Shown here piece by piece: positions 18,286 through 25,128 of a stretch of 64,000 nucleotides of DNA. Numbering within the stretch: position 1 is the first letter of the stretch; the number at the start of each line of letters is the position of its first letter. Under the pieces are notes generated by a model, which had not been told where the DNA came from, searched no databases, and was given only the letters and a program-made list of their open reading frames with translations. Position numbers and translations under genes: made by a program. Source of the DNA: Patescibacteria group bacterium (GTDB lineage: Bacteria; Patescibacteriota; Microgenomatia; Daviesbacterales; UBA10151); contig JBBTSA010000010.1 of the NCBI GenBank assembly GCA_038064895.1, positions 31,725 to 95,724 on the forward strand, written 5' to 3'.

Positions 18286-19605
18286 ATGTCTGAAAGAATA
18301 CTGCCTCAGGCACAAATTGAGGCTAATAATCATTTTGAATTAGAGGTTCAAACGCCTATAGAAATACCCCGCGACAGCAGAGGTAGAATCAGATGGCAAT
18401 TGCTAGAAACTGATCCTACACAATTAGCAAGGGTAATTGAGACTGAAGCACGCTCAGCAATGGAACAAGGAGTACCATTAAAACATAATGCCTTAAGTGC
18501 TAATGGCCTTTCATATCTATCTCGTGCTATTGTAGCCTATTATCCTGGACGCTATCCAGGACTTCGTCAGGCACTTGATTTGCCAACTGGTAATAAGCCA
18601 AAAAATTATTGGAATGACTCAACAATTATTGAACAAGAGGCCAGACAGTTCGTTGAAAGAAACGGTAATCTTACTCAAAAAACCTTAGAAAAAGCGGGGA
18701 ATAGTGGCATTGCTAATGCAGCTTACACCTATTATCCAGGTGGCTTGCAAGCTTTAAAAGATAATCTGGGTATTGTTTCTAGTCAAAAACCTAATGGTTA
18801 CTGGACTCACGATAGAATTGTAAATGAAGCTGTGGAATTTTATATGGAACATGGGCAATTATCCAGGGCTTCATTACATCAGGCAAGTAAAGATGATTTA
18901 GAAGCTGCTATTAAAAAGCATGCAGGAGGATTGGCGGCCTTACGAAAGGAACTAGGAATAGTGACTCAAAGAAAGCCCAATGGTTACTGGACATCTGAAA
19001 ATATTTTTGCACAAGCAGTAGATTTTTACACTGAACATGGCAATATAGTACCCGATACACTTACGGCACATAAAAGATATGACTTACTCTATGCAGCTGT
19101 TAACAGATATCCAGGTGGGATAAGACAACTACAAAAAGATTTGGGAATTAAACCTAAATCTAAAGATGTAGGATTTTGGATAGAAGATACTATTAGAGAA
19201 GAAGCTTTAGCTTTCTTTAACCAATATGGAGGATTAACACATACTCTTTTAGTAAGAAGTGGACGGTTTGACTTAAATCATGCTATCTATCATAAATATC
19301 CTGGCAGTATAAGACAACTCCAAACAGATCTAGGGGTTGAAAGTGGGAAAAGGCCTAATGGATATTGGACACCAGAAAATATCGAAAGAGAGGCGCAAGA
19401 GTTTTTTGATGCTCATGGTATATTGAACTTTGGTATTCTCAATAGGCAAAAAAGTTCTAGTCTAGCTAATGCTATTTCTATACATTACCCAGGAGGTTTA
19501 ATTGCTCTTAGAGAAAAATTAGGCATTGATGGAAAGCAGCAAGGAGTCATTAATTCAGATGAAGCAAATATTCAACTTGAGAGGCTATTGGAGGTACAGA
19601 TATGA
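18286..19605 (+). CDS. Tandem-repeat protein A (439 aa). It has about 7 degenerate repeats of about 58 aa (YPGG...LGI....KPNGYWT.ENI..EA.EF....G.L) and a C-terminal [D/E]ANxQLxRLL tail.
   Basis: An internal repeat is visible by eye. The N-terminal motif IEIPRDSRGRIRWQLLETDPTQLARVIETEA is shared with protein B. C-terminus NSDEANIQLERLLEVQI. Confidence 0.8.
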   Translation: MSERILPQAQIEANNHFELEVQTPIEIPRDSRGRIRWQLLETDPTQLARVIETEARSAMEQGVPLKHNALSANGLSYLSRAIVAYYPGRYPGLRQALDLPTGNKPKNYWNDSTIIEQEARQFVERNGNLTQKTLEKAGNSGIANAAYTYYPGGLQALKDNLGIVSSQKPNGYWTHDRIVNEAVEFYMEHGQLSRASLHQASKDDLEAAIKKHAGGLAALRKELGIVTQRKPNGYWTSENIFAQAVDFYTEHGNIVPDTLTAHKRYDLLYAAVNRYPGGIRQLQKDLGIKPKSKDVGFWIEDTIREEALAFFNQYGGLTHTLLVRSGRFDLNHAIYHKYPGSIRQLQTDLGVESGKRPNGYWTPENIEREAQEFFDAHGILNFGILNRQKSSSLANAISIHYPGGLIALREKLGIDGKQQGVINSDEANIQLERLLEVQI

Positions 19606-20708
19606 GTCCAGATAGAATAGGAAACCAGAATCAAGAAATACATTTACAACCAACTATAGAACCACCTAGAGACAGACGAGGTCGAATTAGATGGTCAGTA
19701 TTAAGACGTGACCAAGAATTATTAGTTAGGGTTATAGAAAGTGAGGCGCAAGGAATTATATCCAGTGGATTTGAACTAACTCCAAAACAATTCCAAGAAT
19801 CTGGAAGAGGCGATCTTGAAAATGCCATATATAAATACTATCCTGGAGGAAGGATAGCCCTAATAGAAAGTCTCGGAGTAGATACAACAAGAAGACCAAA
19901 TGGTTATTGGACTGAAGAAAAAATTAGAGAAGAGGCAGGACAGATTTTTCAGCAGGAAGGTAAATTAACACAAGCAGTTATAGTAGGAATGAGTAGGTCT
20001 CGCTTAGTTCGGGCAATCTCAAACTTTTATCCCGGTGGTTTAAGACAACTCAGAAAAGATTTTAACACGGAATATACGGCTAAACCGGTTGGATATTGGA
20101 CACCCGAACAAATTGAGATTGAGGCTCAATCATTTTATATACAGAATGGTGATATCTCAAATAATAAAATGAGGAGGGATAAAGCAGGAGCCTTGGCAGG
20201 AGCTATTACACGATTCTATCCTGGAGGTTGGCCTCAATTAAGAAAAAATTTGGGAATAGAATTACCTCGGGTTCAAAGAGGCTATTGGACTCAGGAAGAA
20301 ATTGAAAGGAAAGCATTGGAGTTTTATCAAAAGCATGGACAAATAAGCAGATATTCATTATCTAACAATGGAGAAGGAGCACTGGGTACTGCTATATCTA
20401 GCACGTATGGAGGCTCTTATGTAGTTCTTAGAGAAAGACTTGGAATTCCTGCAAGCAAAAGAAGAAAAAGAGGATATTGGACCTCAGAAAATATTGCAGT
20501 AGAGGCTTTAGAATTTTTTAATACATTCGGAGTTCTAACATATCCTGCCCTTACAGCTAATAAATACTATGGTTTACAAAGTGCTATTCATAGATCTCCA
20601 GGAGGATTGAGAGGATTAAAGTTAAAGTTGGGTATTGAGAAGACTAAACAAGATAGCGTTCCTTCTGAAGAAGCTAATCAACAGTTGAGAAGGCTACTGG
20701 AAGGTTAG
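19602..20708 (+). CDS. Tandem-repeat protein B (368 aa), a paralogue of protein A with about 6 repeats and the same C-terminal tail motif
   Basis: Start overlaps the protein A stop as ATGA. N-terminus TIEPPRDRRGRIRWSVLRRDQELLVRVIESEA. Repeats of YPGG...RPNGYWT.E.I..EA. C-terminus PSEEANQQLRRLLEG. Confidence 0.8.
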   Translation: MSPDRIGNQNQEIHLQPTIEPPRDRRGRIRWSVLRRDQELLVRVIESEAQGIISSGFELTPKQFQESGRGDLENAIYKYYPGGRIALIESLGVDTTRRPNGYWTEEKIREEAGQIFQQEGKLTQAVIVGMSRSRLVRAISNFYPGGLRQLRKDFNTEYTAKPVGYWTPEQIEIEAQSFYIQNGDISNNKMRRDKAGALAGAITRFYPGGWPQLRKNLGIELPRVQRGYWTQEEIERKALEFYQKHGQISRYSLSNNGEGALGTAISSTYGGSYVVLRERLGIPASKRRKRGYWTSENIAVEALEFFNTFGVLTYPALTANKYYGLQSAIHRSPGGLRGLKLKLGIEKTKQDSVPSEEANQQLRRLLEG

Positions 20709-20728
20709 ATAATGAAAGGGAGAAATAT

Positions 20729-24580: not shown

Positions 24581-24582
24581 AA

Positions 24583-25128
24583 ATGGCAGAATTTGAAACA
24601 AGAACAGCTGAGTTTTTCAAACAAAATTATGATGATCTAGCAGCACAGCTCCAAAATAGAGTTGTGGAGTTAGCTGATTCAGGTTTGAGGATTATTTTAA
24701 CTTTATTACAACCTTGGTCTAGAACAGAAACAGGAGGAGGAATTGCTCAAGTAAGACCTTGGTACAAAGCTATGAGGAATATGGAGCCAGGAGATTGGTG
24801 TGCAACAGCTATACCTTTAAGAAGCATGAGACAGTCACTTGTTGTAGCTTTGGATACTCGTGAGGTAGGTGCATGTATAAGGATTGTGCGGGCAAGCAGA
24901 TTTGACCCTCAAAAAAATGATTTTGTGGCAATGCCAAGGGAAGGTGATATAGCAAACTTTTTAGGGATGAGAGATAATGAAAGAGCTCAAATTAGATTCC
25001 TAAATGAATCAGATGTATTGTATCTTGTACGTACCGGCCTAACTATAGAGCCGGTTGTGAATACACCCAGCCCCCAGAACACCACAGACGCAAACCGTCA
25101 ACTCGAAAGGCTTTTACAAAGCCAATAA
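24583..25128 (+). CDS. 181-aa hypothetical protein ending in the same [D/E]ANxQLxRLL tail as proteins A and B
   Basis: Start lies 2 nt after the fusion-protein stop. C-terminus TTDANRQLERLLQSQ. No recognisable domain by eye. Confidence 0.65.
   Translation: MAEFETRTAEFFKQNYDDLAAQLQNRVVELADSGLRIILTLLQPWSRTETGGGIAQVRPWYKAMRNMEPGDWCATAIPLRSMRQSLVVALDTREVGACIRIVRASRFDPQKNDFVAMPREGDIANFLGMRDNERAQIRFLNESDVLYLVRTGLTIEPVVNTPSPQNTTDANRQLERLLQSQ

Follow-up and report, generated by a model that had tools for sequence, protein, structure and literature searches.

In the 64 kb window (the whole stretch of DNA that was analysed), an operon of four genes, A to D, was located on the forward strand. The genes and features were as follows:

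18250–18278, + strand: promoter-like site 5' of gene A, TTGAAA-17-TAAAAT with a TG extension (10 of 12 consensus matches, pattern match only)
18286–19605, + strand: gene A, 439 aa, with a PRDxRGRIRW motif near the N-terminus, six copies of a repeat of about 62 aa and a C-terminal tail
19552–19602, + strand: tail of A, NSDEANIQLERLLEVQI; core motif 19561–19590
19590–19594, + strand: GGAGG Shine–Dalgarno sequence of gene B, within the L-E-V codons of the tail of A (direct sequence reading)
19602–20708, + strand: gene B, 368 aa, a paralogue of A, with five repeats and a C-terminal tail
20661–20705, + strand: tail of B, PSEEANQQLRRLLEG; core motif 20670–20699
20729–24580, + strand: gene C, 1283 aa, the tail-less hub candidate (AlphaFold2 model of aa 84–1283, pLDDT 82.9)
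21572–23332, + strand: SNF2-like two-lobe ATPase of C, aa ~282–868; motif I, of a variant form, GDTGATKT (aa 315–322), motif II DESD (aa 421–424)
23516–24124, + strand: class I SAM-dependent methyltransferase domain of C, aa ~930–1132 (Pfam Methyltransf_11), motif I IGAGTC
24344–24577, + strand: C-terminal helical domain of C, aa 1206–1282, on a low-confidence linker, with a basic helix (...SEINRIVRSRS) at the end
24583–25128, + strand: gene D, 181 aa, with an AAG/MPG-like beta-barrel core (aa 1–154, 24583–25044)
25045–25080, + strand: linker of D, aa 155–166 (PVVNTPSPQN...), non-helical in the model; pLDDT below 50 for aa 159–167
25081–25125, + strand: tail of D, TTDANRQLERLLQSQ; core motif 25087–25116, predicted helix aa 167–180
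25260–25283, + strand: terminator-like stem-loop and T-run 3' of D, CCCCGGACTCGGGG followed by AAGTTTTTGA (pattern match only)

The tail motif was searched in all six frames of the window by regular expression. The pattern [DE]AN.QL.RLL was matched three times, at the core positions given above, and the looser pattern QL.RLL returned the same three sites only. All three matches ended 2–4 residues ahead of the stop codons of A, B and D. The result was in agreement with the original prediction, which had reported one C-terminal peptide on three of the four operon proteins and none on the fusion protein C; its open reading frames were recovered and its tail coordinates were correct within 1–3 nt. 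Moreover, the stretches encoding the tails of A, B and D differ at synonymous positions, and the conservation is therefore at the peptide level.

The proteins A and B share the N-terminal PRDxRGRIRW motif and the repeat, the consensus of which is GYWTxExIxxEAxxFxxxxGxLxxxxLxxxxxxxLxxAIxxxYPGGxxxLxxxLGI. The stop of gene A overlaps the start of gene B (ATGA). The carriers of the tail had been described as otherwise unrelated; this holds only for D as compared with A and B, because A and B are paralogous repeat arrays. Protein A matched no Pfam family above threshold, and the repeat found no consistent family match in Pfam, NCBIfam, PHROGs, PADLOC or the PDB profile search. Weak matches of proteins with the A/B-type repeat were obtained to Phage_CP76/CII-like families and phrog_20046 (function unknown), and one upstream protein matched HTH_29. 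The repeat may resemble the homing-endonuclease-associated repeat, a likeness that none of the tools returned. In addition, a distant SNF2-like helicase (P0048) carried one A-type repeat in the same chain, as a Rosetta-stone hint.

From its N- to its C-terminus, protein C contains a helical domain, an SNF2-type motor, a class I SAM methyltransferase domain and a second helical domain. The best 50 Foldseek matches of its model were SNF2 remodellers (SMARCAD1, Chd1, ISWI, Rad54 and Mot1), with E values from 2.5 × 10−14 to 1.5 × 10−11, and the modelled motor shows an SNF2/SWI2-type fold with two RecA-like lobes. The motor region also matched PHROG 62 ('DNA helicase') with an E value of 8 × 10−21. 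SNF2-rel_dom gave no match in the C of the window at E ≤ 0.1, and PF00176 was recorded for about 9 of 45 C homologues. Furthermore, aa ~930–1132 belong to the class I SAM-dependent methyltransferases, with the glycine-rich motif I present. Methyltransf_11 scored 22.9 bits (cut-off 21.2), the PDB profile matches were SAM methyltransferases and spermidine synthase, and the region matched PADLOC mad2 with an E value of 2 × 10−11. When the methyltransferase domains of C and 44 homologues were scanned, none of the motifs [DNS]PP[YFW], PCQ and ENV was found; judged by these motifs, C would fall outside the DNA amino-methyltransferases (N6A/N4C) and the C5 methyltransferases. No relative of C was found among viral contigs, and a phage origin was not retained.

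Protein D is unrelated to A and B; its fold is remotely related to that of the AAG/MPG alkylpurine-DNA glycosylases (FMT-C-like). The support for this came from hhalign only, with a probability of 88.7% and a score of 43.6 compared with at most 19.0 for 30 shuffles. None of 17 D-family members matched Pfam PF02245 (Pur_DNA_glyco) at E ≤ 10, and Foldseek returned no match either. The position of the catalytic Glu125 is Gln in the D of the window and E, Q, Y, K, R or H over the D family, which suggests that D does not have the catalytic general base of the AAG/MPG superfamily. An aromatic residue equivalent to Tyr127 was kept in the family, and the position of the Tyr162 wedge was mostly Arg. 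Compared with AAG/MPG, D has an additional linker and tail. In the AlphaFold2 model, the tail forms a helix at aa 167–180, preceded by the segment of low confidence.

The operon was found again in 21 related Patescibacteria loci, with one to four upstream proteins followed by C and then D. No description of the operon or the tail was found in the literature; the operon is uncharacterised and so far known only from Patescibacteria/CPR. The tail was present on 67 of the 72 accessory proteins, with the consensus [ST]-P-[DE]-E-A-N-x-x-L-x-[RK]-L-L. Among these 67 tails, the counts at the successive consensus positions were S/T 49, P 44, D/E 49, E 42, A 61, N 49, L 60, R/K 48, L/F 57 and L/F 55. 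Only Ala0 and Leu4 were near-invariant across loci. Likewise, the tail was found on 23 of 24 B homologues, B itself not counted, and on most of 103 D-family representatives (clusters at 50% identity). It occurred at the C-terminus of none of 723 flanking ORFs. No tail-like motif was found in the 45 C homologues, including the long variants P0039–P0047. The number of variable residues after the core was 1 to 8, and up to 15 at most. From one to five proteins per operon carried the tail, a range that agrees better with independent docking than with a bundle of fixed stoichiometry. The D tail was missing in some operons (L005, the P0002 contig and L020), indicating that the subunits need not all be tethered.

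The tails were alike within a locus and unlike between loci, with types such as LL, FF, YF, DQWL..ML and PTDLE.LL. Non-homologous proteins of one locus shared locus-specific tails: DLD[RK]FF in L011, AL..[YF]F in L014, F..F[LV] in L017, DLR.LA[FM]G in L021, AD.L[LM]RSL in L019 and PTDLE[RK]LLE in L008. The score of upstream tails against D tails was 40.6 within loci and 21.7 between loci. In 10 of 16 loci, the best match of the D tail was among the upstream tails of its own locus (permutation p ≤ 5 × 10−6), compared with p = 0.72 in the same test for a control segment 40–62 aa upstream of the tail. Over the upstream–D tail pairs, 96 of 183 identical residues used different codons, close to the 104 expected under independent codon choice. 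Selection on the peptide, rather than recent gene conversion, therefore maintains the identity. In L013, there were 15 codon differences where about 25 would be expected, and some gene conversion among the copies is possible there.

The original prediction had offered the tail as a common docking or recognition peptide, for example one bound by C, or else as a degron or a secretion or sorting tag. The use as a docking or recognition peptide within the operon was strongly supported by its presence on 67 of 72 accessory proteins, its absence from the 45 C homologues and the 723 flanking ORFs, and the co-variation (p ≤ 5 × 10−6). In our estimate, it is reasonably likely that the tail is a docking helix that co-evolves with one common partner and brings interchangeable accessory subunits to it. 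This partner would most likely be C, since C is the only invariant, tail-less component of the system. The portable docking module would be a flexible linker followed by an amphipathic helix of about 12 residues, N-capped by [ST]-P-[DE]-E, with a hydrophobic face of A0, L4, L7 and L8 (LxxLL-type); every accessory protein would end in this module. Its carriers would be D, a protein with an AAG/MPG-like base-flipping fold, and the upstream proteins, which number one to four and often consist of arrays of the novel ~62-aa helical repeat. A single rapidly co-evolving receptor of the same system would fit all tails of an operon, and the interchangeable subunits would be tethered to C as a DNA-translocating methyltransferase hub. 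The analysis itself shows the motif and its confinement to the operon, the predicted helical state of the tail, the co-variation within loci on non-homologous proteins, the selection at the peptide level and the folds of C and D. That a protein is bound by the tail, that C is the protein in question and that DNA is what the complex acts on are inferred.

In search of the receptor, columns of C that track aromatic versus aliphatic tails were sought in about 16 sequences; the eleven obtained were scattered over aa 248–1076 and did not cluster. The C-terminal helical domain is a weak candidate receptor, on charge complementarity only. Of 15 loci, 13 had acidic tails and 13 had a C whose last 20 residues were basic; in L009, the sole locus with basic tails, the end of C was neutral. 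As a degenerate tail or pairing partner, the C-terminal basic helix showed weak within-locus similarity to the tails (17.4 versus 15.9, p = 0.016) and was retained as a hypothesis. The C-terminal domain of C was also compared with the A-type repeat, and no similarity was found (hhalign probability 0.2%).

Co-variation within loci would also be expected from any fast-evolving partner of the same genome or from mutual binding of the tails. The tails might thus assemble with each other as a small helical bundle or zipper, with no dedicated receptor on C. They are amphipathic helices, and under mutual binding, too, the tails of one locus would all have to change jointly, but the core of about 9–13 residues, roughly three turns, is short for a stable autonomous bundle, and the number of tails per operon varies from one to five. 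Moreover, with net charges of −2 to −6, the tails are strongly acidic and would not readily self-associate unless a basic partner took part, and we consider such homotypic assembly unlikely. An origin at the nucleic-acid level is hardly credible. The peptide likeness would then be a by-product of a DNA or RNA element (a ribosome-binding or translational-coupling signal, or a recombination site) or of gene conversion. The GGAGG of gene B does lie in the last tail codons of A, and in many loci LLEE is encoded as CTTTTGGAGGAA directly 5' of an overlapping start; however, this accounts for the last two or three codons only. No operon gene follows D, yet D keeps the peptide with different codons, and synonymous sites are scrambled in the upstream–D pairs. 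A DNA-level repeat or gene conversion was largely refuted by these synonymous differences.

By analogy with CheR and the chemoreceptors, the tail may instead be a recognition or substrate element of the methyltransferase, with C acting as a protein methyltransferase on the tail Asn, Gln/Glu or Arg. The generic Methyltransf_11 class, the absence of [DNS]PP[YFW] and C5 motifs in all 44 homologues and the unusually conserved Asn at +1 (49 of 67) would agree with this. Against it, the PADLOC match was to mad2, a protein of the 'mads' defence-system entry, and the partner folds, an SNF2 dsDNA translocase and an AAG-like protein, point to a nucleic acid substrate. Besides Ala0 and Leu4, no tail residue is near-invariant across loci, and this explanation seems quite improbable. 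Reading of the tail by general host machinery, as a ClpXP or Lon C-terminal degron, a secretion or sorting signal or a sliding-clamp-binding motif, is more improbable still. The tail is C-terminal, and QLxRLL superficially resembles the clamp-binding motif, which is QL[SD]LF or QLxLxL. Housekeeping receptors are conserved, whereas the tail motif changes drastically between related genomes, and no other ORF in the window or among the 723 flanking ORFs carries it. The core is followed by 1 to at least 8 variable residues, and the free C-terminus is therefore not part of the signal; an ssrA-like degron, with conserved residues at a fixed distance from the end, does not appear to be present. As for the clamp, the Gln of QLxRLL occurs in only 29 of the 67 tails, and the i, i+4, i+7, i+8 spacing with the S/T-P-D/E-E cap is helical and not that of an extended motif; the tail does not fit the extended beta-clamp-binding form. 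The carriers of the window have no hydrophobic anchor or signal features, and the tail carriers in general look like cytoplasmic nucleic-acid proteins. The degron and secretion or sorting proposals were not supported, because of the varying distance to the end, the genome-to-genome change of the motif, the lack of other nearby carriers and the cytoplasmic look of the carriers.

Short docking peptides on unrelated proteins are a known principle, as in the SSB and FtsZ tails, CheR tethering and encapsulation peptides. Wu, Li, Weis and Hazelbauer reportedly described in 1996 that CheR is tethered via the C-terminal NWETF pentapeptide of chemoreceptors. Like CheR/CheB-NWETF, the docking helix proposed here would combine an extreme C-terminal peptide on a flexible linker, a SAM-dependent methyltransferase partner and several paralogous carriers; in its model, D shows such a flexible linker and C-terminal peptide. 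However, the NWETF pentapeptide is conserved and non-helical and is borne by the substrates of the enzyme, whereas the operon tail is a capped amphipathic helix that diverges fast between genomes and sits on non-homologous carriers, with binding to C as a putative feature. The SSB-Ct (DDDIPF) and the FtsZ C-terminal peptide are tails that bind hubs, and they resemble the operon tail in joining a disordered linker to a short conserved C-terminal docking handle. They have one carrier and many readers and are conserved across bacteria, while the operon tail has many carriers and apparently one reader and is locus-specific. An ssb gene ending in ...DDIPF was present in L007, and an ftsZ gene ending in ...DIPAFLRQKN in L004.

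Encapsulation peptides of bacterial microcompartments and cargo-loading peptides of encapsulins are cargo-targeting peptides. They are likewise short amphipathic helices or peptides, borne on linkers by unrelated operon proteins, that co-evolve with a receptor of the same locus; there, however, the receptor is a compartment shell, and the hub candidate here is an SNF2-methyltransferase enzyme. No shell (BMC) or encapsulin gene was found in the Pfam lists of called genes in the loci fetched. LxxLL (NR-box) helices dock in a hydrophobic groove. They and the recruitment motifs of eukaryotic SNF2 remodellers share with the tail the L-x-x-L-L amphipathic helix, and the hub candidate is an SNF2-family motor, but they belong to eukaryotes and lie within the chain instead of strictly at its C-terminus, and no homology is implied. 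DISARM (DrmD SNF2 helicase, DrmMI/MII methyltransferase), BREX and MADS similarly join an SNF2-type or other helicase and a methyltransferase in one multi-gene locus. The operon differs in having no DrmA/B/C, PglZ or BrxC equivalents and in the fusion of motor and methyltransferase in C, and repeat arrays, an AAG-like protein or a shared tail are not known from those systems. The PADLOC models gave no match to A, B, D or the helicase part of C, and, apart from the mad2 match of the methyltransferase region, signature proteins of DISARM, BREX, MADS or other PADLOC systems do not appear to be encoded.

A more tentative and rather doubtful extension of the docking-helix reading is a Patescibacteria-specific, so far undescribed modular machine for DNA modification or surveillance. 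By means of an 'address' helix that evolves fast and is specific to the locus, C, as an SNF2 translocase with a non-canonical methyltransferase, would recruit interchangeable repeat-array adaptors for DNA recognition. It would also recruit an AAG-like protein, catalytically degenerate, as a reader of ring-methylated purines. If so, the tail would be a private assembly code that stops paralogous or horizontally acquired systems from cross-wiring. If the methyltransferase indeed made ring-methylated purines read by the AAG-like subunit, bacterial DNA modification would gain a system of a new kind. The operon unites a new repeat family and an AAG-like protein with an SNF2 motor and a non-canonical methyltransferase. 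The tail predicts which proteins share one complex, offers a simple sequence signature for finding more subunits in metagenomes, and gives an experimental handle by deletion or swap of 15 residues. Furthermore, the natural specificity variants (LL, FF, YF, W..ML) could be used to test a co-evolving peptide–receptor code. As for the neighbourhood of the operon, some of the loci adjoin RhuM/PDC-S05, AbiEii or HicA genes.

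The C-termini of A, B and D in the operon were NSDEANIQLERLLEVQI, PSEEANQQLRRLLEG and TTDANRQLERLLQSQ, respectively, and C, the SNF2-methyltransferase fusion, ended in ...DSEINRIVRSRS without the tail. In a six-frame regular-expression scan of the 64 kb, both [DE]AN.QL.RLL and the looser QL.RLL matched only three sites, the ends of A, B and D, each 2-4 residues ahead of the stop codon. This was in agreement with the original prediction of a common C-terminal peptide on three of the four proteins, missing from the fusion. Furthermore, the tail coding stretches of the three genes differed at synonymous positions. 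Given the position of the only matches near stop codons and these synonymous differences, the shared tail is beyond reasonable doubt real, and it is non-random and peptide-level.

The four genes are tightly packed on the + strand from 18286 to 25128 and look like one operon.

Features of the operon
18250-18278, promoter-like site, 5' of the operon
18286-19605, + strand, gene A, 439 aa
19602-20708, + strand, gene B, 368 aa
20729-24580, + strand, gene C, 1283 aa
24583-25128, + strand, gene D, 181 aa
25260-25273, terminator-like hairpin, 3' of the operon

At 19590-19605, the stop of A overlaps the start of B (ATGA), and the L-E-V codons ending A's tail contain GGAGG, the ribosome-binding site of B. 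AAGGGAG is found 5' of C (20714-20731), and TAGGAG within the last codons of C stands 5' of D's ATG (24568-24585). Translational coupling across A, B, C and D is tight. Many related loci encode LLEE as CTTTTGGAGGAA, directly before an overlapping start. A pterin-4a-carbinolamine dehydratase gene (17814-18146) lies upstream and a RhuM-family/PDC-S05 gene (25337-26323, +) downstream; together with the operon they are bracketed by tRNA-Thr(cgt) (17599-17671, -) and tRNA-Gly(ccc) (26475-26548, -), and the region may be an island. The ORF at 26320-26562 was rejected as a spurious antisense reading of tRNA-Gly.

Twenty-one related Patescibacteria loci were fetched with DNA, and two further contigs as gene tables only. 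The same gene order recurred, with C preceded by between one and four upstream proteins and followed by a D homologue. The tail was present on 67 of the 72 accessory proteins (upstream proteins and D). Of 723 further ORFs from the window and the flanks of the loci, not one ended in it. It was also carried by 23 of 24 B homologues (B itself excluded) and most of 103 D-family representatives (50% identity clusters); no tail-like motif was found in any of the C homologues. The consensus was (I/V)-[ST]-P-[DE]-E-A-N-x-x-L-x-[RK]-[LF]-[LF], followed by 1 to 8 variable residues. The tail is a classical S/T-P-D/E-E helix cap plus an amphipathic helix, an LxxLL-type motif, with A0, L4, L7 and L8 on one side. 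The five exceptions comprised two or three D proteins ending directly after the core domain, a truncated tail, a divergent tail and a truncated protein. D lacked the tail in L005 (13753-14169), L020 (2271-8726) and the contig of P0002, which are useful natural controls; the sole upstream protein of L020 ends ...LKGLRKIVEEEITNWETAGK, the canonical tail missing.

The carriers had been described as otherwise unrelated. This held for D, which is unrelated to A and B, and failed for A and B themselves, whose sequences show them to be paralogues, A with 6 and B with 5 copies of one ~62-aa repeat (GYWTxExIxxEAxxFxxxxGxLxxxxLxxxxxxxLxxAIxxxYPGGxxxLxxxLGI). No family describing this repeat was found in Pfam, NCBIfam, PADLOC or PDB sequences, and PHROG gave nothing beyond one unknown-function family. 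In many upstream tail-bearing proteins (e.g., in L007, L014, L017 and L018), neither an A-type repeat nor a Pfam domain could be detected, and the tail is therefore carried by more than two kinds of protein.

Tails were similar inside a locus and dissimilar between loci, even when non-homologous upstream proteins were compared with D.

Tails of upstream proteins and D in related loci
L004: upstream SPDEANEQLRRLLEE on two proteins, SPDDANEQLRRLIED on a third; D SPDEANEQLRRLLEE
L013: upstream EANEDLDRLLE on four proteins; D same
L011: upstream AEKDLDRFF; D ADQDLDKFF
L014: upstream A..AL..[YF]F on three proteins; D same pattern
L017: upstream AN..F.NFL; D VNAAFRRFV
L008: upstream PTDLERLLEL; D PTDLEKLLEV
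L019: upstream ADELLRSLEEE; D ADDLMRSLPEE
L021: upstream ADDDLRRLAFG; D ADTDLRALAMG
L009: upstream basic variant; D basic variant

When the last 22 residues were scored by the best ungapped BLOSUM62 segment in 16 loci, the mean upstream-versus-D score was 40.6 for pairs from the same locus and 21.7 for pairs from different loci, and the own locus ranked top in 10 of 16 (permutation p <= 5e-6). The effect was absent from a control segment lying 40-62 residues before the C-terminus (13.5 vs 14.0, p = 0.72). In aligned upstream-D tail pairs, different codons were used at 96 of 183 identical residues, compared with 104 expected under independent codon draw, which rules out recent DNA copying as the source of the likeness.

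The tail probably serves to dock its carrier on a system-specific partner, either C or other tails, as the original prediction of a common docking or recognition peptide had proposed. This reading is based on a capped amphipathic helix after a linker, strictly C-terminal on accessory proteins; on its absence from C, the one invariant component, and from neighbouring genes; and on lineage-specific co-variation across unrelated proteins, held by peptide-level selection. The docking peptide would co-evolve with a receptor from the same system. C would be the most economical receptor, and that it is the partner has a chance close to, or a little below, even. The tails were acidic in 13 of 15 loci and the last 20 residues of C basic in 13 of 15, and in the only locus with basic tails the C end was neutral; these opposite charges hint weakly at C. 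P0048 (1326 aa), a distant SNF2-like helicase without the methyltransferase domain, contains a single A-type repeat at residues ~447-510 (PPGYWTLEIVQQHL...YSGGLPQILSEFKGV), a second weak hint, of the Rosetta-stone kind, that the repeat may work with such a helicase. A simple column-association search in C for the tail receptor gave no informative signal.

Homotypic tail-tail bundling, instead of a receptor on C, is a real rival, but the tails are short and acidic, and their number per operon varies from 1 to 5. A degron or secretion tag, also proposed originally, or a clamp motif is unlikely, because the peptide differs among related genomes and lies at a varying distance from the free end, its residues are spaced as in a helix, and it is carried by nothing else nearby. 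As the cause of the conservation, the ribosome-binding site within the final codons of the tail is likewise a poorer candidate than bundling: it accounts at most for residues past the LL pair and is inapplicable to D.

In the AlphaFold2 model of D (pLDDT 78), the core is a beta-barrel, the linker (aa 155-166; pLDDT <50 at aa 159-167) is non-helical and the tail forms a terminal helix (aa 167-180). The AAG query sequence, checked against PDB, was aligned with a 17-member D-family profile, giving an hhalign probability of 88.7% and a score of 43.6, compared with 19.0 for the best of 30 shuffles and 12.6 for the reversed sequence. The alignment spans FFxQxxxxLA, the E125-x-Y127 segment, PGxL and GACV. 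The relationship was undetected by Pfam and by Foldseek. We call D a remote AAG-fold relative. The AAG fold flips and inspects alkylated purines. The position of catalytic Glu125 is Gln in the D of the window and E, Q or other residues across the family; an aromatic residue equivalent to Tyr127 is kept, and the Tyr162 wedge position is a conserved Arg/Tyr, mostly Arg. Judging from these residues, a base-flipping reader is a likelier role for D than that of a conserved, universally active glycosylase.

The AlphaFold2 model of C (aa 84-1283, 44-sequence alignment, pLDDT 82.9) matched the SNF2 remodeller motors SMARCAD1, Chd1, ISWI and Rad54 (E 1e-14 to 1e-11), with GDTGATKT as motif I and DESD as motif II. 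Residues ~930-1132 (23516-24124) are a class I SAM methyltransferase, with Methyltransf_11 above cut-off and a match to PADLOC mad2 (E 2e-11). In this model, aa 1206-1282 form a small helical domain on a low-confidence linker, ending in a basic helix. The motifs [DNS]PP[YFW] and PCQ/ENV were absent from the methyltransferase domain of C and of all 44 homologues scanned; candidate substrates are RNA, protein or, in a base, a ring nitrogen. The lack of canonical DNA-methyltransferase motifs is notable beside an AAG-like partner; the AAG family recognises ring-methylated purines. The C homologues (n = 45) were 35-69% identical, all named ones came from Patescibacteria/Microgenomates-type MAGs, and none was found in viral contigs.

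The combination of an SNF2 dsDNA translocase fused to a methyltransferase, varying helical-repeat arrays that could plausibly serve as adaptors for nucleic acid or target recognition, and an AAG-fold protein suggests a DNA-modification or surveillance complex. The operon lies between ftsA and ftsZ in L004 (4930-13924; identical to L010), and adjoins mraZ-mraW-ftsI in L001, rpsF-ssb in L007, and rnc in both L006 (with trmD) and L013 (with rpsP-trmD); in other loci it is beside Replic_Relax/AbiEii, HicA or RhuM/PDC-S05. The varied housekeeping neighbourhoods imply repeated insertion or rearrangement, and this variable position fits an accessory, possibly defence-related module. DISARM, BREX and MADS, searched via PADLOC, gave no match beyond C's methyltransferase domain. 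The tail acts like the tethering peptides CheR-NWETF, SSB-Ct, the FtsZ C-terminal peptide and encapsulation/cargo-loading peptides, and like LxxLL boxes, but is a member of none. No description of the operon or tail was found in the literature searched; we rate the tail as a device following a known tethering principle and the system carrying it as uncharacterised.

A and B also have the N-terminal motif PRDxRGRIRW in common. As [IV]PRDxRGRIRW it is strongly conserved ahead of the first repeat in all A-type proteins (18364-18396 and 19674-19706; P0050-P0073) and varies less than the tail; it may serve as a second interaction motif or contact DNA. In L016 (10001-16958), the C homologue P0041 (2071 aa) has an ~800-aa N-terminal and a C-terminal extension, no upstream tail-bearing genes are present, and the 246-aa D has the divergent tail TPDEALMAKFTRRVSE.
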